Numbered from the stretch's first letter, positions 13,320 to 52,845 are shown. The stretch is 64,000 nucleotides of DNA from an uncultured virus (IMG/VR IMGVR_UViG_3300036770_004513) (IMGVR_UViG_3300036770_004513); one strand, 5' to 3'. Program-made: numbers and translations. Notes: a model not told the origin generated them from the sequence alone.

Positions 13320-13781
13320 TCAAAGTTCAATAAACCGAAAGGCCCGGACACAGCCCGTACCCGTCTTACTACCGGAGCTCTGCACACCATTATTGAAATT
13401 CACGTAGCACGCACAAGTAGAGCTAGCCTCAGTAGAAGACCAGTAATACGTGGACGAAAAGTATTGATTTGCGTCCCTATATGCAAGTTTCAATTGCTTT
13501 TGTGAAGGAATAAACCACTGTGATGGATTGAGTCCGTGTTCCTTAAGTGACTCAAAAACATCAGTAAATTCCTCACTCCACTTACAAAGAACTTCAGTCT
13601 CCTTTGGTGCAGCAATAAGAACCAGTCCATCATATTTTGCAATAACAACACAACCATCCTCTAGCAATTCCCCAACATTAGCTTCTTCGATTGTAGGGAA
13701 AGCCTTATTCAGTTGTTCTTGAAGCCTATTCAATTGTTCTTGAGTTTTCTCGATCTCTTGTTGAAGTTGAATCCGATTCAT
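13320..13781 (-). CDS. CLec-fold (DUF1566/Lcl-like) DGR target paralog, coiled-coil leader
   Basis: WFIPS.KQL...YWSSTE...CVRAF; variable region at about 13341-13459. Confidence 0.9.
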   Translation of the reverse strand: MNRIQLQQEIEKTQEQLNRLQEQLNKAFPTIEEANVGELLEDGCVVIAKYDGLVLIAAPKETEVLCKWSEEFTDVFESLKEHGLNPSQWFIPSQKQLKLAYRDANQYFSSTYYWSSTEASSTCACYVNFNNGVQSSGSKTGTGCVRAFRFIEL

Positions 13782-13959
13782 AAGGAACACTCCTTAACGA
13801 CCCACTAACAATAACACAGATTCAAACCCATTCCAACAGCAGTAGACAGCCTTTCAACTGGCATAATACTTATTGACACAAGAAAGCTGTGCTAATCCTG
13901 TATTAGAAAAAATTGATCTAACACAGCCTAACACTGTTTTTTATTAAGTTGTTTAGGGT

Positions 13960-14155
13960 GATTATTGAATTGATTATTTGGTGTCTAAGCAGCGCCTTAC
14001 TGGGGGTCTAAATGCCGTTTCCAAGGTTACTTAGCAAAACCTCATAATAAATTCGTTAATCTATTCTGGACCGGGTTAGATTATTGAATTGATTATCAGT
14101 GTCTACACAGAGCCTTACTGGGGGTCGATGCCGTTTCCAAGGTTGTTAGCAAAAC
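13960..14155. repeat. two ~80-bp imperfect direct repeats in a non-coding gap
   Basis: GATTATTGAATTGATTAT..GTGTCTA..CAG.GCCTTACTGGGGGTC..ATGCCGTTTCCAAGGTT..TTAGCAAAAC at 13960-14040 and 14079-14155. Confidence 0.85.
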
Positions 14156-14328
14156 TGATAACGCTTTCTCCAATCTGTTATTATTTATAACACTTATTGT
14201 TTTAAGTGTGTTTTCGTCTGAGGGTGTATGATACGTTCACTACATTTAGAACTGACTAAAATTATTAAATTGTAGTTATTGCAGTCGATTTCAGCCAATA
14301 AAAAAGGGGCCTTATCAGCCCCAAGTTT

Positions 14329-14937
14329 CTAGAGTGTTATGAGTTTGAATGGAATAACAAAGGAACTGGTATTGAGATACTCTAGAGGAAGCCACAATCC
14401 ACTCCTTTCACTCCAGAATAAATCTCTGGCCATAATCCTTTTGCTTTTGAATTCTGGCTTAATCTTAAACAATTGGTCAATCATCTTACGGGTAGGTACA
14501 AACCAACCTGTATTCATTTGTATTGAACGAGGGGTGCTGTTTGTTGAATACATCCCCCTAATGTTAGCAATAAGAACCCAATTGTCTTTCTTATCCACAA
14601 CCAAATAATCAAAAACAGTATCCCCAGGAGAGCAGTTATCATAAGTCTTTTTAGCCTTTTCTTTTTCCAGTTGTTCCTGCAATTTGGCCAGTTGTTTCTG
14701 GGTTTCTTCAATCTGTTGCTGTAGATTCATAGATTCTTCCTTGAGTTTAATGGATTTGATGTTTAAGGGATTAGATACCTTACCATCCCAATAATAACCA
14801 TCTTGAGTGTATGTGTGTGCATTAACAATAAAAGGATAATCAGTTGAGGAGTTACTATAAACTACCCCTTCATAAGTCTTGTCATTCTTATAAGTAACAA
14901 TGACAGTCTTATTGACGAATTGTGAAAGGTCAATCAT
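14329..14937 (-). CDS. MIDLxQF-module protein with a degenerate CLec-like C-terminus
   Basis: N-module shared with 16076, 17239, 24171 and 48004; coiled coil; GWFVPT...FWS...VIPFKLITL remnant. Confidence 0.75.
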   Translation of the reverse strand: MIDLSQFVNKTVIVTYKNDKTYEGVVYSNSSTDYPFIVNAHTYTQDGYYWDGKVSNPLNIKSIKLKEESMNLQQQIEETQKQLAKLQEQLEKEKAKKTYDNCSPGDTVFDYLVVDKKDNWVLIANIRGMYSTNSTPRSIQMNTGWFVPTRKMIDQLFKIKPEFKSKRIMARDLFWSERSGLWLPLEYLNTSSFVIPFKLITL

Positions 14938-15029
14938 AGCAAGGGATCTCCTTTGGTGGGTGACTTGGTTATTGTAGCAGATGGATGAGAGCTGTTGGCC
15001 TTATGGTGTGCCAGTTGATAAAGTGTCCT

Positions 15030-15385
15030 AGTGTGAATTGATTGGGGGGTCTGTGTTTGTTATTGTTGATGGGTGTGAATTGATTATGTTGAGTGTCTTA
15101 TTGTTTGTCTGTGTTTGTTATTGTTGATGGGTGTGAATTGATTATGATTGGAAACCCGAGGATACTAGGCAATAAGGCACCCAACAACCATAATCAATAA
15201 TAAACCCCCCAAACAATAATAAACTCTACAAACTCTACAATCAATAATAAACTCTACAAACAATAAGGCACCCGAAACCCCCCAAACAATAATAAACTCT
15301 ACAAACAATAAGGCACCCGAAACCCCCCAAACAATAATAAACTCTACAAACTCTACAAACAATAATAAACTCTACAAACAATAAT
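15030..15385. repeat. iteron-like repeat tract with a strand-composition switch at about 15150
   Basis: 2x GTCTGTGTTTGTTATTGTTGATGGGTGTGAATTGATTATG, then many AAACAATAATAAACTCTAC and CAATAAGGCACCCGAAACCCCCC units. Confidence 0.9.
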
Positions 15386-16075: not shown

Positions 16076-16744
16076 TCAGAAACTAACGAAACGAAAGGCC
16101 CGGACACAGAGCGTACACGCCTTACTAGAGGTGCCCTGGGTACCAAAATTGAAATTCACGAGGCACGCAGTAGTAGAGCTAGCCTCAGTAGAAGACCAGT
16201 AATACGCGGACGAGAAATGTTGTTCTGCGTTGGTGTATGCAAGTTTCAATTGCTTTTGTGATGGAATAAACCACTGTGAGGGGTTAAATCCTTTTTTCTT
16301 AAGTTTATCAAAAACAGGAGTAAATTCTGGGGTCCATTTACAGCGAACCTCAGTATCTTTTGGAGCAGCAATAAGAGCTGCATTACCGTACTTCTCAATA
16401 ACAACAGTTCCATCCTCCAATTCATCGCCAGGATTTGCATCTTGGAGAGTAGGATAGCTTTTTGCTAGTTGTTGCTTGATAAGTTCTGCTTCTCGTTGGA
16501 TTGTTTCAAGTCGTTGTTCTAGGGTTTCTTCCTTGAGTTTAATGGATTTGATGTTTAGGTGATAAGGGTTTTTGCTCTCCCAAAAATAACCATCCCTCGT
16601 GTAAGAAGTAAGGCTGCCATCAGGATACCGCAATTTATAAGGAAAAAGCGAGGAGTTAAACCTTTCAATAACACCTTCCCTTGTGGTTCCACCCTCACGG
16701 GTTACGACAACAGTTTTGTTGATAAATTGTTCAAGATCAATCAT
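16076..16744 (-). CDS. CLec-fold DGR target paralog with MIDLEQF N-module
   Basis: conserved VR scaffold at about 16097-16215. Confidence 0.9.
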   Translation of the reverse strand: MIDLEQFINKTVVVTREGGTTREGVIERFNSSLFPYKLRYPDGSLTSYTRDGYFWESKNPYHLNIKSIKLKEETLEQRLETIQREAELIKQQLAKSYPTLQDANPGDELEDGTVVIEKYGNAALIAAPKDTEVRCKWTPEFTPVFDKLKKKGFNPSQWFIPSQKQLKLAYTNAEQHFSSAYYWSSTEASSTTACLVNFNFGTQGTSSKACTLCVRAFRFVSF

Positions 16745-17238: not shown

Positions 17239-17937
17239 TCAGAAACTAACGAAACGAAAGGCCCGGACAGGATGATGGCCATCTTTATAAAAATCAGACT
17301 GATTACCTGTACTAAGTTCTACAGTAATCGCTGAAATTTCAGAAAACTCATCGCAGGACCAATGAGTGTAAGTGTAAGAAACTCGCCTAAAGTTTTGTTT
17401 GGCGTTTTTATGGGCAAGTTTAAGTTGATTTGCAGTAGGAATAAACCACTGCGAAGGATTGAAATTGTGCTCTTGGAGTTTATCAAAGACAGGCTGAAAT
17501 TCTGGTGTCCAATGACAATAAATTTCAGTAGATTGTGGTGCAGCAATAAGAGCTGCATTACCGTATTTTTCAATAACAACAGTTCCATCCTCCAGCAGAT
17601 CACCAGGGTTGGCATCTTGGAGAGTAGGGAAAGTTATCTTCAATTGTTGCTTAATTGCCTCGGCTTCTCGTTGAATAGTCTCAAGCCGTTGTTCTAGGGT
17701 TTCTTCCTTCAGTTTAATGGATTTTATGTTTGCTGAACTAGGGCATTTGTCCGGCCAATAATAGCCATCCTTGGTGTAAGTAATAACAGATGCATAAGGA
17801 AAGGCACAAATAGAATACCGCAATTTATAAGGACAATTCGGGAAGTTATTCCTTTCAATAACACCTTCCCTTGTGGCTCCGTCTTCACGGGTTACGACAA
17901 CAGTTTTGTTGACAAATTGTTCAAGATCAATCATCAT
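17239..17937 (-). CDS. CLec-fold paralog with MIDLEQF N-module, diverged VR
   Basis: near-duplicate of 16076..16744 upstream of the VR; HWSCDE...PVRAFRFVSF. Confidence 0.85.
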   Translation of the reverse strand: MMIDLEQFVNKTVVVTREDGATREGVIERNNFPNCPYKLRYSICAFPYASVITYTKDGYYWPDKCPSSANIKSIKLKEETLEQRLETIQREAEAIKQQLKITFPTLQDANPGDLLEDGTVVIEKYGNAALIAAPQSTEIYCHWTPEFQPVFDKLQEHNFNPSQWFIPTANQLKLAHKNAKQNFRRVSYTYTHWSCDEFSEISAITVELSTGNQSDFYKDGHHPVRAFRFVSF

Positions 17938-18019: not shown

Positions 18020-18559
18020 TCAAAGTTCAACAAGCCTAAAGGCTCGAACAGGTTTTTCCCATCCCTTTTTGTGTTCATCAAGACTAAAGGCCCGAACAGG
18101 TTTTTCCCATCCCTTTCTGTCTTTTTTAGCAGGTTCGTAAACGCAGAAATAATCTAAGATTTCAAACATGAAAGGGTCATCGGGGCTGTACCAGTAACCC
18201 TTAATGGTAAAATTCGGAAAATGTTTATTTGCTCTAAAATAGGCAATTACAAGGTGAATTTCAGCAGGAATAAACCACTCTGATGGATTAAACCCATTTG
18301 CTTTCAAGGAGTCAAAAACCGCATTACACTTATAAGACCTATCACACCAAACTTCCGTTTCCTTTGGTGCTGCAATAAGCACCCTTTCTTTGTGGAAAGG
18401 GGTTTTTGGATAACGCTCGATAACAACACAACCATCATCCAACAATTCGCCTGGCTGAGCGTATTGAATGGACGATCGACTATTTGTTACTAGATTCCTA
18501 ATGCGCCTGAATAAATGTTGAGTTATTTCAAGCCACTGGCAAAATTTAGAATTGAGCAT
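18020..18559 (-). CDS. CLec-fold paralog, diverged VR with a duplicated C-terminal segment
   Basis: LIAAPKETEV, NPSEWFIP; KGWEKPVRAF present twice. Confidence 0.8.
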   Translation of the reverse strand: MLNSKFCQWLEITQHLFRRIRNLVTNSRSSIQYAQPGELLDDGCVVIERYPKTPFHKERVLIAAPKETEVWCDRSYKCNAVFDSLKANGFNPSEWFIPAEIHLVIAYFRANKHFPNFTIKGYWYSPDDPFMFEILDYFCVYEPAKKDRKGWEKPVRAFSLDEHKKGWEKPVRAFRLVEL

Positions 18560-19529: not shown

Positions 19530-19991
19530 TCAAAGTTCAACAAGCCTAAAGGCCCGGACACAGCACGTACTCGACTTACTATTGGCGCGCTGGTAACCAA
19601 AAATGAAATTCACGCTGCACGCATTAGTAGAGCTAGCCTCAGTAGAAGACCAGTAATTCGCGGACGAAAATTGTTGTTTCGCGTTTTTGTATGCAAGTTT
19701 CAATTGTTTTTGAGTAGGAATAAACCACTGTGATGGATTAAAGTTATGTTCCTGAAGTTTATTGAATACAGGAGTAAATTCTTCACTCCACTCGCAACGA
19801 ACTTGAGTTTCAATTGGAGCAGCAATAAGAGCTGCATTACCGTACTTCTCAATAACAACAGTTCCATCCTCCAATTCATCGCCAGGATTTGCATCTTGGA
19901 GAGTAGGATAGCTTTTTGCCAGAGCCTTCTTAATCTGTTCGGCTTCCTGTTGAATGGTATTAAGCCGTTGTTGCATTTCGGCGCGGTTCAT
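19530..19991 (-). CDS. CLec-fold DGR target paralog
   Basis: conserved VR scaffold at about 19551-19669. Confidence 0.9.
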   Translation of the reverse strand: MNRAEMQQRLNTIQQEAEQIKKALAKSYPTLQDANPGDELEDGTVVIEKYGNAALIAAPIETQVRCEWSEEFTPVFNKLQEHNFNPSQWFIPTQKQLKLAYKNAKQQFSSANYWSSTEASSTNACSVNFIFGYQRANSKSSTCCVRAFRLVEL

Positions 19992-20287: not shown

Positions 20288-21217
20288 TTAAAGTTCGATT
20301 TTCCTAAAGGCCCGAGCCGCACACACAGCAACCTTATACACTCCATAATGATAACCAGTGTTCATACTTACTTTATAAGCATTCATATCGTTAGCCTCAA
20401 TTGAGGACCAGTACCAAAAATAAGAAAAGTCCTTTTTGGCGTTTCGGTATGCTAATTGTAGTTGTTCAATCGAAGGAATAAACCAATCAGATGGGTTAAA
20501 CCCTTTTTCCTTGAGCCTATCGAAGACTGGTTTTAATTCTGGTGTCCAAATACACTCAACTTCAGTTGTTCTTGGTGCAGCAATAAGCAGACTACCATTC
20601 GATAAGATGTTACGTGGATACCGTTCAACAACAATACAACCATCCTCAAGAAAATCGCCAGGTTGGGCATCTTCTAGAGATGGAAACTTTGGATCAACAA
20701 TTTGATGATTATCGTTCTCAATAACATCAACAAGTTTTTCTTTCCATTTATCAAATCCTGTTGCCATGCTATGTTCTTCTGGATCAAGCGCAACACCAAT
20801 ACCATAAAGAATATCCATCAAGAATGTGTAATCTGAATAATTCTCACAATCAGTACAATTGGCATAGTCATTGAGGTATGATTGTAGATACTCGACCATA
20901 AGCCTCATCCTTTGTTGAGGATTATTCGCTTGGCGAAGTTCTTGCTCAATAGTTGCAGTTGATCGCATAAGTTGCTGTTCTTCTGTTTGAATTTTAACGC
21001 AAATTCCTCGGATGTTATAAGGGCTAGGGGATTCATTAGTCCAAAGAAATCCGTTTACATTGTAGTGGCAAAGGAATTTACTATCATAACTGGTAAACCG
21101 ATAAGGAAAATTCCCTTCAGTAAACGAAATATAGCCATCTATGTTGCGACCATCCTCAATTTGAATTGTAACTGCTTTTCCGACGAATTCATTAAGATTG
21201 ATCATAAGGCTCTCCAA
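20288..21217 (-). CDS. three-module CLec-fold paralog, diverged VR
   Basis: INLNEFVGK N-module, central helical module, C-terminal WYWSSIEA...ARAFRKIEL. Confidence 0.85.
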   Translation of the reverse strand: MESLMINLNEFVGKAVTIQIEDGRNIDGYISFTEGNFPYRFTSYDSKFLCHYNVNGFLWTNESPSPYNIRGICVKIQTEEQQLMRSTATIEQELRQANNPQQRMRLMVEYLQSYLNDYANCTDCENYSDYTFLMDILYGIGVALDPEEHSMATGFDKWKEKLVDVIENDNHQIVDPKFPSLEDAQPGDFLEDGCIVVERYPRNILSNGSLLIAAPRTTEVECIWTPELKPVFDRLKEKGFNPSDWFIPSIEQLQLAYRNAKKDFSYFWYWSSIEANDMNAYKVSMNTGYHYGVYKVAVCAARAFRKIEL

Positions 21218-25603: not shown

Positions 25604-26002
25604 TCAAAGTTCAACAAGCCTGAAGGCCCGGACACGGAGCGTATTCGTCTTACTAGCGGTGTACTGGTAACCCCCCTTGAAGCCCACGAGGCACGCATCA
25701 GTAGAGCTAGCCTCATCTGAAGACCAGTACCACCAACCGGGAAAATGTGGTTTGGCATTTTTGTAGGCTAATTGCAGTTGCTCAACCGAAGGAATAAACC
25801 AATCAGATGGATTAAATCCGTGTTCCTTGAGATTATCAAAGACTGGTTTAAATTCTGGAGTCCATTCACAGCGAATTTCAGTTTCTATTGGTGCAGCAAT
25901 AAGCAACCTTTCGTTATAAAAAATGGTCCTTGGCTGACGTTCAATCACAATAGAACCATCATCTAGAACTTGACCTGGGATGTAAGTTTGAAGAGTTTGC
26001 AT
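25604..26002 (-). CDS. CLec-fold DGR target paralog without leader
   Basis: VR scaffold at about 25625-25730. Confidence 0.9.
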   Translation of the reverse strand: MQTLQTYIPGQVLDDGSIVIERQPRTIFYNERLLIAAPIETEIRCEWTPEFKPVFDNLKEHGFNPSDWFIPSVEQLQLAYKNAKPHFPGWWYWSSDEASSTDACLVGFKGGYQYTASKTNTLRVRAFRLVEL

Positions 26003-27645: not shown

Positions 27646-28272
27646 TTATTGGTTGGCACAGAGTTCAATAAACCTGAAGGCGCGAACAGAGAACGTAATC
27701 GTCTTTCTACTGAGGAGATTGTTACCATTAAGGAAGTACACGCTATGCGCATAATCAATGCTAGCATCGTCTGAAGGCCAGTAAACCGCTGACGAAACAA
27801 AGTGCTGTTTGGCGTTTTTGTATGCCAATTCTAGTTGCTCAACCGAAGGAATAAACCAATCAGAGGGATTAACCCCGTGTTCCTTGAGCCTATCGAAGAC
27901 TGGTTGGAATTCTGGGGTCCATTCGCAACGAACTTCAGTTTCTTTTGGTGCAGCAATAAGCAGTTTTTCGTTGTGGAAAATGGATTTGGGTTGACGATCA
28001 ATAACAATACACCCATCAGCCAACTTATCGCCTGGTTTAGCATTCTCTAGAGTCGGGAATCGCTGGCAATTTCTAGGCAATGGCAGCCAATGTGTGGGTG
28101 GGAATGGATGGGGCCAGCGAGCGAATGTGCCATCATTTTCAGCCCACACGCAGTAAGGGTCGCTGGTGTAATTGTTAGCCACTGGACTATGAATCGCAAT
28201 GGCAACAAACATCCTTTTGACTTCTGTTGGGGCGGAATCAATAGGCCGCCAGAGTTCTTGTGATTGGATCAT
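27646..28272 (-). CDS. CLec-fold paralog with DUF551-like N-terminal module
   Basis: WRPIDSAP...PTHWLPLP, then the family core; partly diverged VR. Confidence 0.85.
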   Translation of the reverse strand: MIQSQELWRPIDSAPTEVKRMFVAIAIHSPVANNYTSDPYCVWAENDGTFARWPHPFPPTHWLPLPRNCQRFPTLENAKPGDKLADGCIVIDRQPKSIFHNEKLLIAAPKETEVRCEWTPEFQPVFDRLKEHGVNPSDWFIPSVEQLELAYKNAKQHFVSSAVYWPSDDASIDYAHSVYFLNGNNLLSRKTITFSVRAFRFIELCANQ

Positions 28273-28775: not shown

Positions 28776-29237
28776 TCAAAGTTCAACAAACCTGAAAGCC
28801 CGAACACAGTACGTAGACACCTTACTATAGGTGCCCTGGTTACCATTACTGAAAAACACGCTGCACGCAAAAGTAGAGCTAGCCTCAGTAGAAGACCAGT
28901 AGAACTCGGACGAAAAGTGTTGTTTGGCGTTATTATGGGCAAGTTTCAATTGCTCTTGAGATGGAATAAACCATTGGGATGGATTGAGTCCGTGTTCCTT
29001 AAGTGACTCAAAAACATCAGAGAATTCTTTACTCCACTCACAATCAACTTCAGTCTCCTTTGGAGCAGCAATAAGAACTGCATTGCTATACTTTGCAATA
29101 ACAACAGTCCCATCTTCCAATTTATCACCAGGATTGGCTTCTTGAATAGAAGGGAAAGACTTCTTCAATTGCTGTTTAATTGCCTCGGCTTCTTGTTGAA
29201 TGGTCTCAAGCCGTTGTTGCATTTCAGATCGGTTCAT
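28776..29237 (-). CDS. CLec-fold DGR target paralog
   Basis: VR scaffold at about 28797-28915. Confidence 0.9.
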   Translation of the reverse strand: MNRSEMQQRLETIQQEAEAIKQQLKKSFPSIQEANPGDKLEDGTVVIAKYSNAVLIAAPKETEVDCEWSKEFSDVFESLKEHGLNPSQWFIPSQEQLKLAHNNAKQHFSSEFYWSSTEASSTFACSVFFSNGNQGTYSKVSTYCVRAFRFVEL

Positions 29238-30824: not shown

Positions 30825-31346
30825 TCAAAGTTCGATAAACCTGAATGCACTGACGCCGCCGTTTTCCATCTTATTAAGAGAGGTGTGGCTACCACCACAA
30901 AAACTCACAAAATACGCATTAAAAGAATCAACCTCCGTAGAAGACCAGTACCAATAGAAGCAAAAATGATGTTTGGCGTTTTTGAGTGCCAATTTCAATT
31001 GATCAAACGATGGAAGAAACCAATCAGGTGGATTTAATCCGTGTTTCTTGAGTTTAATACGGACCTGAGTAAATTCATTACCCCACGCACAACAAACTTG
31101 AGTTTCTTTTGGTGCAGCAATAAGCAGCCGTTCGTTATGAAGAAGTGTTTTTGGATAACGCTCGATAACAACACAACCATCAGCTAGCTTATCGCCAGGT
31201 TGGGCTTCCTCTAGAGTTGGGAAAGTCGTTTTAAGAAGGGTTTTAAGTCTTTTTAATTCAGTTTTAAGTCTTTTTAATTCAGCTTGATTAGTTTTTATTA
31301 CCTCCTGTTTATCTTTGATTTTCTTAACAAGAGTTCGATAATCCAT
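30825..31346 (-). CDS. CLec-fold paralog, partly diverged VR
   Basis: WYWSSTEV...VSAFRFIEL. Confidence 0.85.
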   Translation of the reverse strand: MDYRTLVKKIKDKQEVIKTNQAELKRLKTELKRLKTLLKTTFPTLEEAQPGDKLADGCVVIERYPKTLLHNERLLIAAPKETQVCCAWGNEFTQVRIKLKKHGLNPPDWFLPSFDQLKLALKNAKHHFCFYWYWSSTEVDSFNAYFVSFCGGSHTSLNKMENGGVSAFRFIEL

Positions 31347-31438: not shown

Positions 31439-31942
31439 TCAAAGTTCAATAAACCTAAAGGCCCGAACACAGCGCATATTCGTCTTTCTATCGGCGCTCT
31501 GGTCACCAAAAATGAAAGACAAGCTGCACGCAATAGTTGGGCTAACTTCATCTGAAGACCAATACAAAAAGCCGCCAGGGAATTGTTGTTTGGCGTTTTG
31601 GTATGCCAATTGTAGCTGCTCAACAGAAGGAATAAACCACTCAGATGGATTAAAACTACGTTTCTTGAGTCTATCAAAGACTGGTTTGAATTCTGGTGTC
31701 CACTGGTAACAAATTTGAGTTTCTTTTGGTGCAGCAATAAGCAGCCGTTCGTTATGAAGAATTGTTTTTGGAAAACGCTCGATAACAATACAACCATCAG
31801 CCAACTTATCGCCAGGTTGGGCTTGTTCTGGAGTGGGAAAAGTTGTTTTAAGAAGATTTTTAAGACCTTTCAATTTAGCTCGTGTGGACTTAATTAAATC
31901 CTCTTCTTCCTTGATTTTTTGAACAAGAGTTGAATAATTCAT
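31439..31942 (-). CDS. CLec-fold paralog, partly diverged VR
   Basis: YWSSDEV...CVRAFRFIEL; tandem duplicate of 30825..31346 including the leader. Confidence 0.85.
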   Translation of the reverse strand: MNYSTLVQKIKEEEDLIKSTRAKLKGLKNLLKTTFPTPEQAQPGDKLADGCIVIERFPKTILHNERLLIAAPKETQICYQWTPEFKPVFDRLKKRSFNPSEWFIPSVEQLQLAYQNAKQQFPGGFLYWSSDEVSPTIACSLSFIFGDQSADRKTNMRCVRAFRFIEL

Positions 31943-39456: not shown

Positions 39457-39933
39457 TCAAAGTTCAACAAGCCTGAAGGCCCGGACACAGGACGTAGACG
39501 CCTTACTACGGGTGTACCGGGTACCAGTAAAATACACGGCGCACGCATTAGTAGAGCTAGTCTCAGAAGAAGACCAGTAAAACGTGGACGAAAATTGTTG
39601 TTTGGCGTTTTTGGATGTCAATTGTAGTTGTTCAACCGAAGGGATAAACCAATCAGATGGATTATGGCCGTGTACCTTGAGTTTATCAAAGACTGGCTGA
39701 AATTCTGGTGTCCATTCGCAACGAACTTCAGTTTCTTTTGGAGCAGCAATAAGCAGCCTTTCGTTGTAGAGAATGGATTTGGGTTGACGCTCAATAACAA
39801 CACAACCATCCTCTAGCTTATCTCCAGGTTGGGCTTGTTCTGGAGTGGGAAAAGTTGTTTTAAGAAGTTTCTTAAGTCTTTTTAATTCACGACTTGTCTC
39901 GCTAATTTTAGCCTTAAGTTCAAGATAATCCAT
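39457..39933 (-). CDS. CLec-fold DGR target paralog (VR one codon short)
   Basis: VR scaffold at about 39478-39593; start at MDYLE. Confidence 0.9.
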   Translation of the reverse strand: MDYLELKAKISETSRELKRLKKLLKTTFPTPEQAQPGDKLEDGCVVIERQPKSILYNERLLIAAPKETEVRCEWTPEFQPVFDKLKVHGHNPSDWFIPSVEQLQLTSKNAKQQFSSTFYWSSSETSSTNACAVYFTGTRYTRSKASTSCVRAFRLVEL

Positions 39934-40092
39934 AATTAAGGTAATTAGATAATAGTCCCAGGTTTTAGAGTCTCTGGTGTTTGGTTTAAGGTGTTTTCGA
40001 TAAGTCTTGCAAACACAATGACTGGATCGCCATTCAGTTTGGTTTCGCAAAGAGCCTGTTTCCAGAGACTCTTAATTAGGGTTTCATCCATT

Positions 40093-40293: not shown

Positions 40294-40308
40294 AATAACT
40301 CCTGGTGA

Positions 40309-42024: not shown

Positions 42025-42486
42025 TCAAAGTTCAACAAGTCTGAAGGCCCGGACACAGTACGTAGACGTCTTACTAAAGGCGCTCTGGTAACCACTATTA
42101 AAACCCACGTAGCACGCATTAGCAGAGCTAGCCTCAGTAGAAGACCAGTAAAGCGTGGACGAGAATTGTTGTTTGGTATTTTTATAAGCAAGAAGCAATT
42201 GCTTTTGTGAAGGAATAAACCACTGTGATGGATTGAGTCCGTGTTTCTGAAGTTTATTGAATACAGGAGTAAATTCCTCGCTCCACTCGCAACGAACCTC
42301 AGTCTCCTTTGGTGCAGCAATAAGAGCTGCATTGTTATACTTTGCAATAACAACGGTTCCATCCTCTAGCATGTCGCCAGGTTTGGCTTCTTGGAGAGTA
42401 GGAAAAGTCATCTTCAATTGTTGTTTAATTGCCTCGGCTTCTTGTTGAATGGTATTAAGCCGTTGTTGCATTTCAGATCGGTTCAT
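42025..42486 (-). CDS. CLec-fold DGR target paralog
   Basis: VR scaffold at about 42046-42164. Confidence 0.9.
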   Translation of the reverse strand: MNRSEMQQRLNTIQQEAEAIKQQLKMTFPTLQEAKPGDMLEDGTVVIAKYNNAALIAAPKETEVRCEWSEEFTPVFNKLQKHGLNPSQWFIPSQKQLLLAYKNTKQQFSSTLYWSSTEASSANACYVGFNSGYQSAFSKTSTYCVRAFRLVEL

Positions 42487-43457: not shown

Positions 43458-43919
43458 TCAAAGTTCAACAAGCCTAAAGGCCCGGACACAGCCCGTAAAC
43501 ATCTTACTATCGCGGCTCTGGACACCATTACCGAAATCCACAAAGCACGCACCAGTAGAGCTAGTCTCAGTAGAAGACCAATTCCACCAACCAGAAAAAT
43601 GTTGTTTGCCATTTTTGTAGGCTAGTTTTAATTGTTCAACCGAAGGAATAAACCACTGTGAAGGATTGAGTCCGTGATCTTTAAGGGACTCAAAGACGGG
43701 ATTAAATTCCTCACTCCACTGACAACGAACTTCAGTAGATTGTGGGGCCGCAATAAGAGCTGCATTACCGTATTTCTCAATAACAACAGTTCCATCCTCT
43801 AGCATTTCACCAGGATTTGCATCTTGGATAGAAGGATAGCTTTTTGCTAGAGCCTTCTTAATTTCTTCGGCTTCTTGTTGAATGGTTTCGAGCCGTTGTT
43901 GCATTTCAGATCGGTTCAT
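43458..43919 (-). CDS. CLec-fold DGR target paralog
   Basis: VR scaffold at about 43479-43580. Confidence 0.9.
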   Translation of the reverse strand: MNRSEMQQRLETIQQEAEEIKKALAKSYPSIQDANPGEMLEDGTVVIEKYGNAALIAAPQSTEVRCQWSEEFNPVFESLKDHGLNPSQWFIPSVEQLKLAYKNGKQHFSGWWNWSSTETSSTGACFVDFGNGVQSRDSKMFTGCVRAFRLVEL

Positions 43920-44004: not shown

Positions 44005-44484
44005 TCAAAGCTCAATAAACCGAAAGGCCCGTACACAGATCGTATTCGTCTTATTAACGGCGTACTGGCTACCATCACAGAAGGTCACGATGCACGCAGT
44101 ATTAGAGCTAGCCTCAGTAGAAGACCAATGCCACCATGTTGGAAAATGTTGTTTGGCGTTTTTGTATGCAAGTTTCAATTGCTCAACCGAAGGAATAAAC
44201 CATCCACTTGGGTTAAATCCTTTTTCCTTGAGTTTATCAAAGACTGGTTGGAATTCTGGTATCCACCTACAAAATTCTTCAGTTTCCATTGGTGCAGCAA
44301 CAAGCAATCTTTCGTTATAGAAAATTGTCTTTGGATACCGCTCGATAACAACACTTCCATCAACCAACTTATCGCCAGGTTGAGCTTGTTCTGGGGTTGG
44401 ATAAGTGACTTTTAAAAGCCTTTCTAGTTTATCAACTTCGGCTTTTGCTTTTTTAAGCCGATCTTTAAGTTCAAGATAATCCAT
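44005..44484 (-). CDS. CLec-fold DGR target paralog
   Basis: VR scaffold at about 44026-44127; keeps many AAT codons. Confidence 0.9.
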   Translation of the reverse strand: MDYLELKDRLKKAKAEVDKLERLLKVTYPTPEQAQPGDKLVDGSVVIERYPKTIFYNERLLVAAPMETEEFCRWIPEFQPVFDKLKEKGFNPSGWFIPSVEQLKLAYKNAKQHFPTWWHWSSTEASSNTACIVTFCDGSQYAVNKTNTICVRAFRFIEL

Positions 44485-44486
44485 AA

Positions 44487-44741
44487 TCAAATAAGCTGGG
44501 CAGGAATTAGTGGTTTGATAATTTGATTCCAATTATTGACATCATTTAAAGAAATAGCGTCTTCACTGATGGTCACACTATCATTATTCTCGTGGGGGAA
44601 AAGAATAACATTATTTTTAATTTTTAGGACAAGACCATCTTTATTCATTTGAGCAACAAGAGTCGATGTCTCATCATCAAAAAGACAATGCTTGAACTTT
44701 TTAAGAAGTTTGTAGGCTTCTTGAAGACTGACTTGTTTCAT
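44487..44741 (-). CDS. hypothetical protein
   Basis: start at MKQVS. Confidence 0.55.
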   Translation of the reverse strand: MKQVSLQEAYKLLKKFKHCLFDDETSTLVAQMNKDGLVLKIKNNVILFPHENNDSVTISEDAISLNDVNNWNQIIKPLIPAQLI

Positions 44742-45815: not shown

Positions 45816-46196
45816 TCAGGAAATTACCTTATGAAAGATTTGGAGGGTATCAAGGATACCCATAAGGGCTCCCATTTTTTCGGGATAACTAAGTTCTGGG
45901 TCTTCGTAAATCACTTTTGCCCGTTTAAATGAATCCTGAAAATAAGTATTATCGGATTCAGGAAAACAATAAAGGTCTTGGTTAATAGAAAAATCGACAA
46001 TGGACTTTTCACAAGCAACAAGAACTTGCTGGGCCTTATCAGATTGTTCTTCCCGATCTAGATCAAAATAATGGCAGCGAATGATTGCTTTCTGGTGTTC
46101 AGCATAATGCTCCAAGGCTGCCCGGATCAGATTAACTTCTTCCCTTGGGAATTTTCGCATAGGATGGTTTGTGAACGCCTGATCACTATAACCCAA
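45816..46196 (-). CDS. hypothetical protein
   Basis: ORF in an operon (start probably MRKFP). Confidence 0.55.
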   Translation of the reverse strand: MGYSDQAFTNHPMRKFPREEVNLIRAALEHYAEHQKAIIRCHYFDLDREEQSDKAQQVLVACEKSIVDFSINQDLYCFPESDNTYFQDSFKRAKVIYEDPELSYPEKMGALMGILDTLQIFHKVIS

Positions 46197-47023: not shown

Positions 47024-47494
47024 TTAGAAAGTAACAAGCCTAAATGCACGGACACAGGACGTAAACGTCTTACTACAGGTGAACTGGTCACCATTAAGGA
47101 AATGTACGTGGCACGCATCAGTAGAGCTAGCCTCAGTAGAAGACCAGTAAGACCAGTAATGCGTGGACGAAAAGTATGGTTTCGCGTTTTTGTATGCAAG
47201 TTTCAATTGCTCTTGAGAAGGGATAAACCACTGAGAAGGATTGAAACCTTGAGATTTCAAGGCCTCAAAAACATCAGAGAATTCTTTACTCCAAGTACAC
47301 CTACACTCAGTAATACTTGGTGCAGCAATAAGAGCTGCATTACCGTATTTCTCAATAACAACAGTTCCATCCTCTAGCAGATCGCCAGGTTTGGCTTCTT
47401 GAATAGAAGGATAGCTTTTTGCCAGAGCCTTCTTAATTTGTTCGGCCTCTTGTTGGATAGTTTCGAGCCGTTGTTGCATTTCGGCGTGATTCAT
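47024..47494 (-). CDS. CLec-fold DGR target paralog (9-bp duplication in VR)
   Basis: VR scaffold at about 47045-47172; YWSYWSS. Confidence 0.9.
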   Translation of the reverse strand: MNHAEMQQRLETIQQEAEQIKKALAKSYPSIQEAKPGDLLEDGTVVIEKYGNAALIAAPSITECRCTWSKEFSDVFEALKSQGFNPSQWFIPSQEQLKLAYKNAKPYFSSTHYWSYWSSTEASSTDACHVHFLNGDQFTCSKTFTSCVRAFRLVTF

Positions 47495-47796
47495 ACCAGT
47501 TTCAGTTGGTTATTACGAATCATACGGTTGACCAGAGAACCAACAGAACCTTCAGCATCCACGAGAGTTGCATAGAGTTCATCAATAATGTCGCCAAGTG
47601 CCTCATCAGAAAGCATATACTCATAGGCATCTTCACGACCACGGAAGGTCACAGAAAGAGTATCGCCATTGTAAGACATTGCAGAAATAGCCGAACTTCC
47701 TTCAGGAGTGAAAGTGGCCTCAAAGGTGTTATCATCGCCGGTATTAAGGGTACCGAGCATTTCTTGAGTTGTTACAGAATTCATAGTAGCAGTCAT
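47491..47796 (-). CDS. KTSC-like domain protein
   Basis: SSAISAMSY...LSVTF....YEY...SVGSLVN; GGAGG RBS before MTATM. Confidence 0.65.
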   Translation of the reverse strand: MTATMNSVTTQEMLGTLNTGDDNTFEATFTPEGSSAISAMSYNGDTLSVTFRGREDAYEYMLSDEALGDIIDELYATLVDAEGSVGSLVNRMIRNNQLKLV

Positions 47797-48003
47797 TTCA
47801 ATTTCCTCCAATAGTTTAAGAGTTTTGGGGTCGAGAGATTCATTGAAACCATCAAAAACAGAGGTTTCAATAATGTCGTCAATTGTAGAGGCGATGTCTA
47901 GTTCCTCATTGAAATCGGACGTGAGTAGCATAGCACGAAAATAGGGGGTAGGGTGAAAGTGTGTGACGGCTATGAGAGTGTCACAAAGCTCAAGCAACAA
48001 AAT

Positions 48004-48675
48004 TCAAAGTTCGACAAGCATGAAGGCTCGGACACCGAGCGTAGTCGTCATACTAAAGGGGCCCTGGAAACCACTACTGAAGGACATGTAGCACGCACCA
48101 GTAGAGCTAGCCTCCGTAGAAGACCAGTAACACGAGGACGAAAAGTGTTGTTTGGCGTTTTTATGAGCAAGTTTCAATTGCTTTTGAGAAGGAATAAACC
48201 ACTGTGAGGGTTTAAAGTTGTGAATTGTGAGCTTATCGAAAACTGGTTGGAATTCTGGTGTCCAGGTGCAAAAAACTTCAGTCTCCTTTGGAGCAGCAAT
48301 AAGAACTGCATTACTGTACTTCTCGATAACAATGCAACCATCCTCAAGTTCATCGCCAGGGTTTGCATCTTGGATAGTGGGATGGCTTTTTGTTAGAGCT
48401 TGTTTAATTACTTCGGCTTCTTGTTGAATGGTTTCAAGTTGCTGCCGTAGATCAACTGGCTTTTCCTCCTTGAGTTTGATGGTTTTGATGTTTAGAGGAT
48501 TAATTAACCAATAAAAACCATCCCTTTTATAAATTGCATAGTCGCCATCAGGCCACCGCAATTCATAAGGAAATTTCGAATTGTTGCTTCTTTCAATAAC
48601 AGCTTCACTTGTGAAGCCGTCTTGAAGGGTTACAATAACAGTTTTGTTGACAAATTGTTCAAGATCAATCTTCAT
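48004..48675 (-). CDS. CLec-fold DGR target paralog with MIDLEQF N-module
   Basis: VR scaffold at about 48025-48143. Confidence 0.9.
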   Translation of the reverse strand: MKIDLEQFVNKTVIVTLQDGFTSEAVIERSNNSKFPYELRWPDGDYAIYKRDGFYWLINPLNIKTIKLKEEKPVDLRQQLETIQQEAEVIKQALTKSHPTIQDANPGDELEDGCIVIEKYSNAVLIAAPKETEVFCTWTPEFQPVFDKLTIHNFKPSQWFIPSQKQLKLAHKNAKQHFSSSCYWSSTEASSTGACYMSFSSGFQGPFSMTTTLGVRAFMLVEL

Positions 48676-48744
48676 TGGGGTTCCTCGGTTGACTAGAATA
48701 GAATAACAGGAATTGAATTGAATTTAGTGGTTGGTTGTGCCAGT

Positions 48745-48984
48745 TTAAGAATTGTCATTGTTGAATGTGCCAAAAATCAATAAGATGAATACCGGCCAAA
48801 TACATCCGAGAAGAATGGATGTAATAATGGAAACTACAGTAAAATTAGTAGATTGCAGGCTTTCATCTGTTACTCCTAGCCCCGACAATCTACCTTTTAT
48901 CTCATTCTCGTGAACAATACAAAAGTTATAAATAAAAGCAGCTGTAAACAGGCACATTGCCAAGTAAAATTTAAGATAGATCAT
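48745..48984 (-). CDS. small membrane protein
   Basis: two hydrophobic segments, CIWPV. Confidence 0.6.
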   Translation of the reverse strand: MIYLKFYLAMCLFTAAFIYNFCIVHENEIKGRLSGLGVTDESLQSTNFTVVSIITSILLGCIWPVFILLIFGTFNNDNS

Positions 48985-49253
48985 AATTCTTCATCAATCC
49001 AATCATCATAATCAAGAATCCATTGCGGATCGTTTTCTTCTAGAAAATCAATAATACTCTTTTCGTCAGTTAGATCACCATTGTAATCATAAAGACGAAC
49101 TTCGGTACGACAAAGAGCAGGAGCGTATTCTGCAGGTTCAATCCAGTTATGGTTACGAACCAATTTTACTTCATCGACAACAGCCCTGACTTTGAGGGTA
49201 ACATAGTCCTCGTAACAAAAAAACTCTGATTCAACAAGTTCAATAATTTTCAT
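48981..49253 (-). CDS. hypothetical protein
   Basis: EPAEYAPALC motif. Confidence 0.65.
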   Translation of the reverse strand: MKIIELVESEFFCYEDYVTLKVRAVVDEVKLVRNHNWIEPAEYAPALCRTEVRLYDYNGDLTDEKSIIDFLEENDPQWILDYDDWIDEEL

Positions 49254-50073
49254 TGCTCAATAAGTCGATGAATCATCGTATTCTGGATAGCCCAGATCGT
49301 CTTCATACTCATCATCATAAAGAGCCTCAATGAGTTCCTGATACTTATCAGACTCGTGATCAATCGTGTCTTGTGCGTAGGTCATTGTGTTAAAAGAGCA
49401 AAGGAAAAAAATTCGAGAAAGTCAGTAACGGTTAATGGACTCGGTACAACCACACCAAATTCTAACATCTGATGGGGTTGTAAAAATCCATAAGAGTCGG
49501 AAATTCGATAGAGAAAGGCGGTGAATTCATCATCAGATAAATGCCTCAGCCTGTTCTTGTGTATTGAATGGGCCATACTCATCGCTCCCGCCATCACTGT
49601 ATTCAATGGCCACCCACCAATAATCATTCTCTTCAAAAACTTCCTTAGAAGTCATAAAGATCGCGGTTCGTTCAAGTGTTGCTGCCATAATAATTCTCCT
49701 TAGATTGGAATAATTTTAATGTCCTTGGCCCCTTGTTGTTTTAAATGAGATTCCCAAAAGAAAGCTGCCTCAAGAGTTAGAAGCACTGCGTTTTGTTTAG
49801 AAAAGTAGCCTTTCTTTTTGGGGCGGAGCCATTCAACTCTGTAGCTCATCTTCGATTCTTTTGATAAGGGTCTGAATCTTATGCTCAGCAACGGTATCGT
49901 AGCCAGCATCCTCTTGAACATCCAAAACGATGTCCTCAAGTTCAAGAATTAGCTCATTCAGAAATTGATTCATCAATCCTCCAATTTGTTTTGTGTAGCC
50001 TACCACAGATGGTGGCATTAAGACGAAAGTGTGTGCCAGTTTAGATTCTGGAACAAAGTTCAAGCAACAAATT

Positions 50074-50595
50074 TCAAAGTTCAACAAGCCTGAAGGCCCG
50101 GACACAGCTCGTAACCGCCTTACTACCGGCGATCCGGGTACCATTATTGAAATACACGTAGCACGCATTAGTAGAGCTAGCCTCATCTGAAGACCAGTAC
50201 CACCAACCGGGAAAAGGTGAGCTGGCATTTTTGTAGGCTAATTGCAGTTGCTCAACCGAAGGAATAAACCAATCAGATGGATTAAGGCCGTGTTCCTTGA
50301 GTTTATCAAAGACTGGTTTGAATTCTGGAGTCCATTCGCAAAGAACTTCAGTTTCTTGTGGTGCAGCAATAAGTAGACGTTCATTATAAAAAATTGTCTT
50401 TGGATAACGCTCGATAACGATACAACCATCCTCTAGCTTATCGCCAGGTTGGGCTTCCTCTGGAGTAACAACTGCATTGTTTCTAAGACGAATAAGTTCA
50501 TCTCTTGTCTTACTAAGAGCCACAATCCGAGCATTTAGTTCATCTAGCTCATCATTCGTTGTTTTGATTACTTGGTCGATCTGTTGATAATTCAT
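50074..50595 (-). CDS. CLec-fold DGR target paralog
   Basis: VR scaffold at about 50095-50200. Confidence 0.9.
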   Translation of the reverse strand: MNYQQIDQVIKTTNDELDELNARIVALSKTRDELIRLRNNAVVTPEEAQPGDKLEDGCIVIERYPKTIFYNERLLIAAPQETEVLCEWTPEFKPVFDKLKEHGLNPSDWFIPSVEQLQLAYKNASSPFPGWWYWSSDEASSTNACYVYFNNGTRIAGSKAVTSCVRAFRLVEL

Positions 50596-50767
50596 AAGGC
50601 TCCTGCTAATGGACCATAATCCTAGCAGACAAAATTTCGCCTTGGACTCGCAACAGGACAGTTGTTAAAGTGGTTTAGGCTCTCGGCGGGTGTTGATCCC
50701 ACTTTGTTCACATCGAACAATCTTACCGAAGACGAGAGTAAAAAAGTCTCAAATGAGACTTATTGGT

Positions 50768-51013
50768 TCATTGAGCAGGACCAGACCCCGGCCCCATTGG
50801 GATCCCTTGGGTTACACTAGGGGCACCAGGAATAGCAGGAGCAACACCACCAGAACGATGGACGATTCCTCGTTGAAGAATGGTCCTTGCTTGCGATTTA
50901 GGAATGCCTAATTGACGTGCAAGTTTAGCGGCAGGGCCAGCACTAGCAGGAACAGCAAATGAACCAATAATCAGAGCAGAAAGGAGAAGATTTTTCATAA
51001 GTTTAGAAAGCAA
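50768..51013 (-). CDS. small signal-peptide protein
   Basis: MKNLLLSALIIGSFAVPASA signal-like N-terminus. Confidence 0.55.
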   Translation of the reverse strand: MLSKLMKNLLLSALIIGSFAVPASAGPAAKLARQLGIPKSQARTILQRGIVHRSGGVAPAIPGAPSVTQGIPMGPGSGPAQ

Positions 51014-51023
51014 TTGGGATTAT

Positions 51024-52292
51024 TTAGGCAGCTGCTTTTACTTTTGGTTCATCAATGGTGTCATAAACATAATTACCATTGATAAAAACCTCAGTAACAA
51101 TCGAGTCTACCTGTTCTTCGATCTTACTTCCGTGATTCCTGTAGACGGGAATGATGATCTCACCGAAAGGCTTTTCATAATTCTCATAATCCCCAGGAGT
51201 TAGGGAACCAGATCGAATACGTTCAATGTCTGTATGACCAAGCCGCAAGGTTCGACCAACATTTTGAACAGTAGCACCAATACTTTGTTGGCGCATAAAG
51301 ATGGATGATTGGATGCTATTATTACTCCATCCCTCATTGAGGATAGAATAATGCATCACCACAAACTTTCTATTTTCTTTACCGTAGTCCTCGATTCGTT
51401 TCAAGAACTCAGTACGTTTGAGCTTATCATTGTTATGGAAAGCCCCGTATTTTGATGTGATGTGAAAGATGTCATAACCATTCTCTGATAGATCCTTAAT
51501 AAAATCTGTCATAGACAGAAGGGCCATCATTGCCTTTGTTGATGGACAAGTAATAAGAACCCGATCGGTATTATCACCATTGAGGATACAATCCATCAAG
51601 GTATAATAATCCCTTTCGTGGGCACCTTCTTTCTTGTCCCTAATTTCTGGAATGTGGATAGGAGTTGTTTTAGGTGGGAGAATGGATCCATCATTAATTA
51701 GCTGAACTGCATTGACGCTATACACCTGATCACCATAAACATCGGCATTGTTATTGCCATTTTTTGTCGGGTCCTTGTGATAGCGTGGGGTTGCAGTAAA
51801 GCTATACAGATGTTCACAGAACTTTTCCGTGTCCTTTACCGACTCAAAGAAGTGTTTTTTTGCTCCATTGTGGGCCTCATCAAGATAGATTGAGTCGATG
51901 TTAAGTTCTGCCTTTGCGATCTTATGCAAGGAATGATAAGTCACAAAGATTACTTTAGGTCCTTGAGTCTTATCAGCCCAATAGGCTAGTTGGAGGAAAT
52001 CAGTGATCTTACGTTTTCCAGTTTCACCAGAATGCATATGTACGATGTTGGCATTGTTAATAACCTTTGAGAATTCATTAGAAAGCTGTTGCAGCAATAG
52101 AATCCGTGAGGAAACAATAACAAAAAGAGCGTTTTCTTGGGATTGCATTCGTTTATGAATGTCACCAAAGATTATGAAACTCTTACCAGCAGACGTTGGA
52201 GCAATAATGAGTGCTTTTTTATGAGCATCCATTACCTCTAGTGCCTGGGTTTGATGAGTCCGAAATTCAACACCGTTCATAAGTTCATTCAA
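51024..52292 (-). CDS. superfamily 2 helicase (ResIII/DEAD-like)
   Basis: RTHQ, APTSAGKS, TYHSL, LDEAH, FTATP, ILNEGW, QNVGRTLR. Confidence 0.92.
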   Translation of the reverse strand: MNELMNGVEFRTHQTQALEVMDAHKKALIIAPTSAGKSFIIFGDIHKRMQSQENALFVIVSSRILLLQQLSNEFSKVINNANIVHMHSGETGKRKITDFLQLAYWADKTQGPKVIFVTYHSLHKIAKAELNIDSIYLDEAHNGAKKHFFESVKDTEKFCEHLYSFTATPRYHKDPTKNGNNNADVYGDQVYSVNAVQLINDGSILPPKTTPIHIPEIRDKKEGAHERDYYTLMDCILNGDNTDRVLITCPSTKAMMALLSMTDFIKDLSENGYDIFHITSKYGAFHNNDKLKRTEFLKRIEDYGKENRKFVVMHYSILNEGWSNNSIQSSIFMRQQSIGATVQNVGRTLRLGHTDIERIRSGSLTPGDYENYEKPFGEIIIPVYRNHGSKIEEQVDSIVTEVFINGNYVYDTIDEPKVKAAA

Positions 52293-52365
52293 AGGTGAGA
52301 CAATAATAAAGGGTTAAGTGTTGTTATGGTGTGTTGATGTGCCAGTTTAAATTGTGGTACAAATT

Positions 52366-52845
52366 TCAAAGTTCAACAAACCTAAAGGCTCGGACACAGC
52401 CCGTATACGCCTTACTAGCGGTGAACTGGCTACCATCATTGAAATCCACGCAGCACGCATTAGTAGAGCTAGCCTCAGTAGAAGACCAGTAACGCTGGTG
52501 CCAAAATTGTTGTTTGGCATTTATGTATGCCAATCGTAGTTGTTCAACCGAAGGAATAAACCAATCAGATGGGTCGAATCCGTGAGATTTTAGCTTATCA
52601 AAGACTGGTTTGAATTCTGGAGTCCACTGGCATTCAACTTCAGTTTTCTCTGGTGCAGCCACAAGCAGCCTTTCGTTGTAGAGAATGGATTTTGGCCGGT
52701 GATAAATAACAACACAACCATCATCTAGCTTATCGCCAGGTTGAGCCTCCTCTAGAGTAGGAAAAGTCGTTTTCAACTTCTCCTTTAACCCCGAAAGATA
52801 GAGTTCGGTTGACTTGATTTCAGCTTGCAGTTCAGAATAATTCAT
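52366..52845 (-). CDS. CLec-fold DGR target paralog
   Basis: VR scaffold at about 52387-52492; start at MNYSE. Confidence 0.9.
   Translation of the reverse strand: MNYSELQAEIKSTELYLSGLKEKLKTTFPTLEEAQPGDKLDDGCVVIYHRPKSILYNERLLVAAPEKTEVECQWTPEFKPVFDKLKSHGFDPSDWFIPSVEQLRLAYINAKQQFWHQRYWSSTEASSTNACCVDFNDGSQFTASKAYTGCVRAFRFVEL

Follow-up and report, generated by a model that had tools for sequence, protein, structure and literature searches.

A dispersed family of C-type-lectin-fold genes with a retroelement-type signature of diversification in an uncultured virus

The stretch analyzed here (hereafter the window) is 64,000 nt of DNA from an uncultured virus (IMG/VR IMGVR_UViG_3300036770_004513), in which a first-pass annotation made from the sequence alone had noticed, between positions 13,320 and 52,845, 19 dispersed genes with similar C-termini and had attributed their variability to a diversity-generating retroelement (DGR). 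Coding in the window lies almost wholly on the minus strand, and all 19 stop coordinates that had been proposed are the ends of minus-strand open reading frames (ORFs). These encode proteins of 132-309 aa with C-termini as described (WFIPS..QL.LAY.NA...F...YWSSTE....VRAFR.VEL). When the 19 paralogs were aligned with MAFFT, 22 columns were invariant across a core of ~125 residues that begins FPT..A.PGD.LEDG.VVIE..LIAAP.ETEV.C.W. A profile of the 19 recovers exactly those 19 among the six-frame ORFs of at least 40 aa in the window (E 1e-66 to 1e-101), together with two further partial matches. One of these, ORF 24171-24869, has only an N-terminal module of ~75 aa in common with the paralogs. The other, ORF 14329-14937 (minus strand), is probably a strongly degenerate 20th paralog, in which the same module is followed by a heavily decayed remnant of the core.

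Profile comparison and structure prediction agree in assigning the family to the C-type lectin (CLec) fold that had been claimed for it. Lcl_C (PF07603, formerly DUF1566) was matched in 13 of the 19 proteins with E values of 0.008 to 8e-8; none of the 19 scored over the Pfam gathering threshold (best 33.0 bits, cut-off 34.9 bits), and the precomputed Pfam column of the protein database lists PF07603.18 for several family members. Searched against the sequences of the PDB, the family profile had a sole match, the C-terminal domain of Legionella Lcl (8q4e_A, E 1.6e-6). An AlphaFold2 model of one 153-aa protein, computed with the 19-row alignment (predicted local distance difference test score, pLDDT, 94.3; predicted template modeling score, pTM, 0.79), has a helix at its N terminus (residues 3-24) and, after it, a compact alpha/beta domain. 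Foldseek placed 8q4e_A first for this model (E 9.5e-7, TM 0.61/0.71), and C-type lectin-like chains came next. The family is thus a predicted Lcl_C/DUF1566 domain, homologous to the C-terminal domain of Lcl and sharing its fold. A prediction of a homotrimer from three copies of the 153-aa protein gave a score of 0.00 and weighs neither way.

The N-terminal module of ~75 aa (IDLEQFVNKTVVVT..DGYYW..LNIKSIKLKE) is found in four CLec paralogs (16076-16744, 17239-17937, 20288-21217, and 48004-48675) and in ORFs 14329-14937 and 24171-24869, twice in tandem in the latter; its Pfam matches are weak and limited to LSM/SM-ATX. In the PHROGs database, the C-terminal ~70 residues alone match, to the end of phrog_4245 (unknown function). 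No Pfam effector domain was matched over the curated cut-off in the 19 proteins, gene 17239 having a subthreshold match to EAD9 (16.2 bits at E 0.009, where the cut-off is 25 bits). As the first-pass annotation had stated, signal peptides appear to be missing: a crude hydropathy scan detected no transmembrane- or signal-type hydrophobic stretch in any of the 19 proteins (maximum KD19 1.39). This bears neither way on the intracellular binder repertoire, for example against host defenses, that the first-pass annotation had suggested, since phage proteins may be virion-borne.

The 3' ends of 13 paralogs have a DNA scaffold of ~102-135 nt in common, which we refer to as the variable region (VR). 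Its 5' pattern (GAGGCTAGCTCTACTNNTGCGTGCNNCGTG, at most three mismatches) occurs at 13 sites in the window, all on the minus strand, and its 3' pattern at 14, namely the same 13 and, at three mismatches, gene 31439 (genes are named by their stop coordinates). Neither pattern was matched in 100 shuffles. The claim of a scaffold shared by 13 genes with few exceptions is borne out by these counts, and the two codons given as examples of its variability, before AGT AAG and after ACG, read as stated. In the 153-residue proteins, the VR corresponds to residues ~115-146; it lies at the 3' end of the gene, stops 7 codons short of the stop codon, and occupies the last four to five strands of the modeled CLec fold.

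We tabulated the codons of the 13 window VRs and of two VRs from a related contig (G001, described below), from TGG TCT TCT to CGG GCC, i.e., 34 codons or 102 columns, and defined a column as hypervariable when at least 5 of the 15 sequences deviated. There are 22 such columns, of which 12 fall on the first position of a codon, 10 on the second, and none on the third, and they make up 10 NNY codons and two codons variable in the first letter, NCC and NCG. Among the 13 genes, mean pairwise difference in the VR was 0.291, 0.269, and 0.081 at positions 1, 2, and 3, whereas it was 0.256, 0.175, and 0.432 in the upstream domain (~80 codons) and 0.249, 0.064, and 0.304 in the 7 codons after the VR. 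Positions 1 and 2 are therefore scrambled while the wobble base is frozen, as originally noticed. Exceptions to the frozen wobble base occur in the codon that follows GTG (GGC, ACC, and TCC), in gene 43458 (TTT), and in gene 25604 (AAG/GGG). Since T and C at the third position of NNY codons are always synonymous, selection at the protein level cannot account for a constant wobble base beside scrambled positions 1 and 2, whereas a shared template from which the VRs are copied would produce it.

The bases found at the 22 hypervariable columns are also biased. The commonest is A, in 130 of 328 cells, with T, G, and C at ~86, 83, and 44 (counts that include one extra TTY column). Each VR retains A at 5-11 of the 22 columns, which implies that a template adenine is changed in ~60% of cases. 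No stop codon can arise from an NNY or NCS codon. Together, the codon-position pattern, the inverted divergence, and the excess of A bear out the DGR-type signature that the first-pass annotation had recognized.

At the 80 columns that are not hypervariable, VRs deviate from the scaffold by 0-7 letters. All the window genes concerned are on the minus strand. Deviations are absent from 16076..16744 (222 aa, with the extra N-terminal module; VR 16097-16198), from 19530..19991 (153 aa, the protein modeled; VR 19551-19652), and from one G001 VR. There is a single one in 13320..13790 (156 aa, Lcl_C-like; VR 13341-13442) and 52366..52917 (183-aa ORF, the start probably being MNY further in; VR 52387-52488) and there are two in 42025..42486 (153 aa; VR 42046-42147), the second G001 VR also having 1-2. 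Three were counted in 28776..29237 (153 aa; VR 28797-28898) and 47024..47494 (156 aa; VR 47045-47146, with the 9-nt TACTGGTCT duplicated at its 5' edge), and four in 39457..40050 (197-aa ORF, start probably later; VR 39478-39576, one codon shorter), 43458..43919 (153 aa, no Pfam match at E ≤ 0.01; VR 43479-43580), 44005..44532 (175-aa ORF; VR 44026-44127), and 50074..50595 (173 aa; VR 50095-50196). The most divergent are 48004..48675 (223 aa, N-terminal module; VR 48025-48126), with six, and 25604..26002 (132 aa; VR 25625-25726, homogenized only from GAG GCT), with seven.

In the six other paralogs, we scored the scaffold as fully decayed. It is absent from 17239..17937 (N-terminal module, degenerate C-terminus), 18020..18559, and 20288..21217 (309 aa, N-terminal module and a long insert); remnants are seen in 27646..28272 and 30825..31346 and, as a 3' pattern at three mismatches, in 31439..31942. 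The C-terminal KKGWEKPVRAF segment of gene 18020 is tandemly duplicated, the repeated unit at the VR end being KKGWEKPVRAF(S/R)L. Judging from these sequences, scaffold decay is graded, which is the trace expected of events that recurred over time.

The borders of the homogenized block are asymmetric. Its 5' limit is TTT TCG TCC in 8 of the 13 window genes, where the block reaches ~30 nt further 5' (TTT TCG TCC NCG NNT TAC), TGG TCT in 3, and GAG GCT in 2, while on the 3' side it always ends at the GC-rich TGT GTC CGG GCC (TGTGTCCGGGCC). A variable 5' crossover and a fixed 3' end are the geometry of DGR retrohoming. Downstream of the VRs, the only recurrent inverted repeat is TGTRCCA N10 TGGCACA, which we considered as a DGR stem-loop and rejected because it is a general intergenic motif present at many non-VR sites.

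Our favored explanation, to which we assign a probability of roughly 75%, is that the 3' ~102-135 nt of the 13 paralogs are VRs written by a DGR. A single template repeat (TR) would be transcribed, predicted to carry A at the 22 hypervariable columns in the form of 10 AAY codons, one ACC, and one ACG. The TR RNA would then be reverse-transcribed, with random misincorporation opposite adenines, and the cDNA would replace the 3' end of a target up to the fixed GC-rich boundary (..TGT GTC CGG GCC), with a 5' crossover that varies. The outcome would be a library of small proteins, each with an N-terminal helix, in some cases accompanied by the ~75-aa module, and a CLec domain whose C-terminal strands are diversified for presumed ligand binding, with a potential diversity per gene of 15^10 × 4^2, or ~1e13 variants.

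Several observations weigh against this explanation, the first of which lies in the VRs themselves. Nine scaffold columns with a consensus A, in ACT, GAG, AGC, ACT, CAG, AGT, AAG, and the second ACG, hardly vary: only 7 of their 135 cells depart from the consensus. A template adenine ought to be mutable, so that their constancy would require purifying selection, context-dependent fidelity, or both. In a 2026 study, adenines in an AAC context are reported to mutate significantly more than other adenines (PMC12875486). A simple context rule (AA only, or the preceding base) was rejected here, since ACC and the first ACG vary and AAG does not. Because such rules fail to separate the two classes, we see selection as the main cause, which would mean that the 13 genes are functional. 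In the 19-paralog alignment, the E and K residues are kept even in decayed paralogs, and among the scaffold adenines only the first A of AAG could yield a stop codon.

The other adverse observations concern the missing machinery. The search covered the 64-kb window, whose proteins the protein database assigns to a 117,141-bp contig; about half or more of the phage genome was unseen. The window contains no TR copy by either scaffold pattern, and neither a reverse transcriptase (RT; RVT_1) nor Avd (PF05635) was detected in 92 of its 129 ORFs of at least 80 aa, the 37 left out being shorter, nested in or antisense to longer ones, and of at most 237 aa. Three YxDD motifs were present in 61 long window frames, none within an RT, and a search of short ORFs for a translated TR gave no candidate. 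Patterns for the predicted template had no match in IMG/VR and JGI metagenomes, and the scaffold patterns had none in JGI metagenomes and GTDB genomes (185,579 species representatives), their matches in IMG/VR being confined to G001. These scans of collections are a weak test because the JGI and GTDB collections lack even the window's own VRs. Neither megablast with window positions 51-64 kb nor tblastn with one target protein had a match among 50,697 phage records. RVT_1 was absent from all 11 related IMG/VR records, of which G002-G005 are rated 100% complete and G008 83%, and Avd from all 5 related records searched for it. The DGR-class RT, Avd-like gene, and noncoding scaffold copy that the first-pass annotation had suggested looking for were thus found in none of these places, and its proposal of one template for 13 loci keeps the shared scaffold as its sole basis.

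The related records place the virus and its targets in context. The window helicase is 37-39% identical to those of T4-like cyanophages, the best match being Synechococcus phage S-SRM01 (240,842 bp), and all 419 records matched by it are cyanophages or marine phages. IMG/VR also holds related phages of ~245 kb, among them G003 (243,166 bp, with terminal repeats), which matches 26 of 72 window ORFs at 28-80% identity. From these likenesses, the virus would be a large T4-like, cyanophage-related phage of lytic type and ~240 kb. The closest relatives by helicase (~70% identity), G007 and G008, have one and no CLec gene, respectively, which indicates that the expansion to 19-20 copies is specific to the lineage of the window.

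G001 (55,105 bp, rated 24% complete) carries the window scaffold in two CLec genes, with 0 and 2 deviations, and a decayed form of it in a third. All 38 blastn high-scoring segment pairs between G001 and the window fall within the 3' ends of these three genes, and at the protein level G001 matches no more than 2 of 72 window ORFs. Since G001 is syntenic with G003 at ~116-180 kb, and 46 of its 85 ORFs match G003 there and elsewhere, it represents another region of a phage in the same family. Its scaffold-bearing CLec genes stand among ORFs of 1494, 1229, and 686 aa, in a tail-fiber region, and the same template would therefore probably serve targets in the structural region as well. The first-pass annotation had set the window targets apart from the structural proteins usual for phages, a distinction that the two G001 genes qualify. 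No RT or TR was found in the 55 kb of G001.

G003 has VR-like 3' ends of its own, at 170159-170398 in the structural region and at 238913-239338 and 241511-241999 near the genome end, with their own shared scaffold, of which there is no extra copy in 243,166 bp; none of its six YxDD frames is an RT, and it has no Avd. In two of these ends, borne by otherwise very different proteins, 18 codons differ at positions 1-2, and 4 of the 18 differ also at the wobble base. The missing copy and RT in this complete relative are further points against the favored explanation. Two RT-less relatives, G002 and G009, are 97.6% identical over 6 kb and have an orthologous target gene with 30 mismatches in 453 nt, 18 of them, some at wobble positions, in one 200-nt bin over the VR. 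We rejected the relatives of the G002 type as a second example of a DGR because their paralogous VRs differ at the wobble position too. The target gene is seen as a mismatch hot spot at L014 10001-10453 against L013 (G002 versus G009), and there is a second ~5 kb downstream (L014 15000-15400).

Of 20 sequencing runs, all in the form of assembled Logan contigs, X2, X3, X4, and X6 were compared with the window. Three runs labeled as subsurface metagenome contained 96-98% of the sampled words, as against 17-36% in runs labeled freshwater, lagoon, marine, riverine, and landfill. Unique stretches are identical to the window in X2 and X3, while X4 and X6 contain relatives that are a few percent different. 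All Logan contigs break at the repeated scaffold, and paralogs cross-map at 88% likeness, so that substitution tallies are not interpretable. In one X6 contig, 50043-50222, the VR of gene 50074, is swapped for 157 other letters. Contigs from X2, X3, X4, and X6 link different paralogs within 39001-53000 (e.g., 47293 to 48274, and 48219 back to 42242). These joins reflect either assembly-graph ambiguity at repeats or real recombinants, and the gene order of the window across the repeats therefore rests on one assembly. Among proteins from public metagenomes, 60 homologs keep the same constant and variable positions, and when gene 44005 is compared with its homolog in another sample, the proteins differ at 11 of 39 residues in the VR part but at 8 of 120 in the part that precedes it.

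If a DGR wrote the VRs, its TR and RT may be resident in the phage, be supplied in trans, or have recently become extinct. We see about an even chance that this cassette lies elsewhere in the ~240-kb phage genome, a location we favor because the expansion is lineage-specific and because of the freshest VRs. Alternatively, the VRs might be DGR-made in trans, by an RT/TR cassette on the host chromosome, a prophage, a satellite, or a coinfecting element, the phage holding only the targets and their 3' recognition sequence. The absence of RVT_1 from 11 related records, four of them rated complete, fits such a supply, as do the DGR-like pair of complete G003, with its mostly frozen wobble base and no TR copy, and G001, which has the window scaffold yet no RT or TR. 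Moreover, Avd, TR, and brt are reported to be functional in trans from a plasmid (PMC5758913). However, no TR-bearing genome was found among the 185,579 species representatives, and the scaffold in G001, as another genome region of the same phage family, needs no external element to be shared. The unseen half or more of the phage genome also leaves room for a resident cassette, and the 0-1 CLec genes of the closest helicase relatives are what acquisition of a cassette by one lineage would give. T4-like lytic phages shut down their hosts early, which is a further difficulty for host-supplied machinery. A source in trans is in our view quite unlikely. We are more doubtful still of its stronger form, in which a phage without its own RT keeps an antibody-like set of 13-20 minimal, nonstructural CLec binders, rewritten via the trans retroelement, for intracellular binding of host or competitor molecules.

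Another way to account for the missing cassette is that the DGR was lost or inactivated after writing the VRs, leaving the scaffold as a relic in 13 genes now under ordinary mutation. The six to seven paralogs that have already decayed, the several VRs with 3-7 nonadenine deviations, and the VR-like ends retained in complete relatives without an RT are all compatible with such a fossil library, as is the failure to find a cassette in the window, the collections, or the related records. Against it, three VRs have no deviation and three have 1-2 in 80 columns, even though the 7 codons immediately downstream differ by 0.25, 0.06, and 0.30 at the three positions; a graded series of ages suits a continuing process, and the homolog from another sample differs most in the VR. 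We regard loss of the system as unlikely, and it may still be active. An origin without any retroelement, in which binding residues diversify under selection while gene conversion keeps the framework identical among paralogs, appears very unlikely. Gene conversion does occur in paralog families, Logan contigs contain alternative joins between paralogs, and the RT-less G002/G009 pair concentrates mismatches over a VR, some of them at wobble positions. Yet selection cannot fix the T or C in the wobble position of NNY codons, a synonymous choice, when most pairs of VRs differ at positions 1-2, conversion would homogenize the variable codons too, and the excess of A would be left without explanation.

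Among the closest known systems is the DGR of Bordetella phage BPP-1 (Mtd/bRT/Avd/TR), which likewise has a C-terminal VR in a CLec fold, an AAY-codon design, and a GC-rich 3' boundary. The ~60% change per adenine implied here is not far from the rate for AAC codons in a reconstituted BPP-1 DGR, reported as 68% (PMC12875486). In contrast, BPP-1 has one target, a tail-fiber tip protein that adjoins the RT, whereas there are at least 13 targets here over 40 kb and none of RT, Avd, or TR in 64 kb; its CLec subclass is Mtd rather than Lcl_C/DUF1566, and nine scaffold adenines stay constant here. By domain family, the closest are LdtA of Legionella pneumophila and the DUF1566 target class (category d), named "CLec2" in a survey in which about half are short DUF1566-alone proteins (Wu et al. 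2018, PMC5758913). LdtA is a bacterial surface lipoprotein, whereas the proteins here are phage-encoded by 13-20 genes and lack a signal or lipobox-like N-terminus.

Use of one TR for several dispersed targets is known from the multitarget DGRs of Treponema denticola (TvpA) and Stenotrophomonas. The maxima given in the survey are 8 tandem targets in Stenotrophomonas and 7 nonadjacent ones in Treponema, all cellular, and phage-associated DGR targets are described there as lying within ~50 kb of the RT (PMC5758913). Against these 7-8 cellular targets, one phage window has 13 here, and a related fragment has two more with the same scaffold. The cellular multitarget DGRs of multicellular bacteria such as Thiohalocapsa PB-PSB1 (Dore et al. 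2024, PMC10907252) resemble our case in having many CLec targets that are apparently not at the surface, for which a diversified repertoire of sensors or binders in conflict systems has been proposed. They differ in that NACHT/STAND or other conflict domains are joined to the targets, which are found on a bacterial chromosome with nine DGRs, whereas the proteins here are minimal, a helix plus CLec, and belong to a phage of lytic type. Fusion to conflict-system domains is described for many cellular CLec targets (Dore et al. 2024, PMC10907252), whereas most viral DGR targets are described as proteins of the tail (Roux et al. 2021, PMC8144416). According to a review covering 224 jumbo phages, FGS-type CLec domains are absent from them (PMC7824862). 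We found no comparable array described in the literature that we consulted on DGRs in jumbo phages with multiple targets, in cyanophages, and in phages with DUF1566.

The DGR mechanism and the CLec2 class are already known, and attribution of the pattern to a DGR is well supported; what is new is the unusual number of minimal CLec proteins that one large phage would keep as targets, and the dispersal of their genes. Phage DGRs have mostly been described as a means of retargeting one or two tail-fiber proteins. If our explanation is true, at least 13 short CLec genes, separately promoted and located in the accessory region of a large phage of lytic type, share one template, which would indicate a function other than receptor switching. 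It would also be the largest target set that we found described for one template, the 2018 survey giving 8 and 7 (PMC5758913). For multicellular bacteria, diversified CLec "antigen sensors" have been proposed, and the proteins would be their equivalent in a virus if their site of action is the interior of the infected cell. Given that four complete relatives have no RT, one may ask whether a genome that lacks a retroelement of its own can retain DGR targets or have them serviced. Finally, a minimal scaffold of ~125 aa with 12 diversified codons is an attractive framework for binder engineering.

The CLec genes are embedded among phage genes that encode UvrD and DEAD helicases, two Kyano_Gp96 proteins, HNH endonucleases, a PolyA_pol-type nucleotidyltransferase, ClpS, dCMP deaminase, and ThiF, with tail-fiber proteins at 56-63.7 kb; no tRNA was detected in the window. 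Two HNH endonuclease genes lie amid the CLec paralogs, at 18644-19246 (minus strand) and at 23532-24167 (plus strand), the latter being one of the few plus-strand genes.

The window also contains several recurrent short motifs. One of them, on the minus strand, is an intergenic motif of the form ..GCCAG/GACAG N8-10 (A)ACTGGCACAA, partly an inverted repeat, found for example at 3577, 4484, 12602, 12863, 15007, 18619, 20055, 21269, 32007, 33659, 34784, 42550, and 48736. It stands ~85 nt upstream of many start codons, followed in many CLec genes by CCTGTTAWWCTAYCAAAGTCAACCACGGAGACACTCTT-ATG, and it occurs downstream of several CLec genes as well without being specific to VRs. It may be a phage promoter or an RNA hairpin. 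The last 10 nt of the CLec genes (TTGAACTTTG) recur past six of their stops, ~21 nt away at 13300, 19510, 25584, 39437, and 50054 and 14 nt away at 42012; copies in the whole window number 18, where 0.41 would be expected. A further repeat, GGTTGACGATGTAAGTATGGCACAG, is present in three copies on the plus strand, at ~6329-6359, 9778-9808, and 11252-11282, which coincide with ORF ends in the 6-11 kb region.

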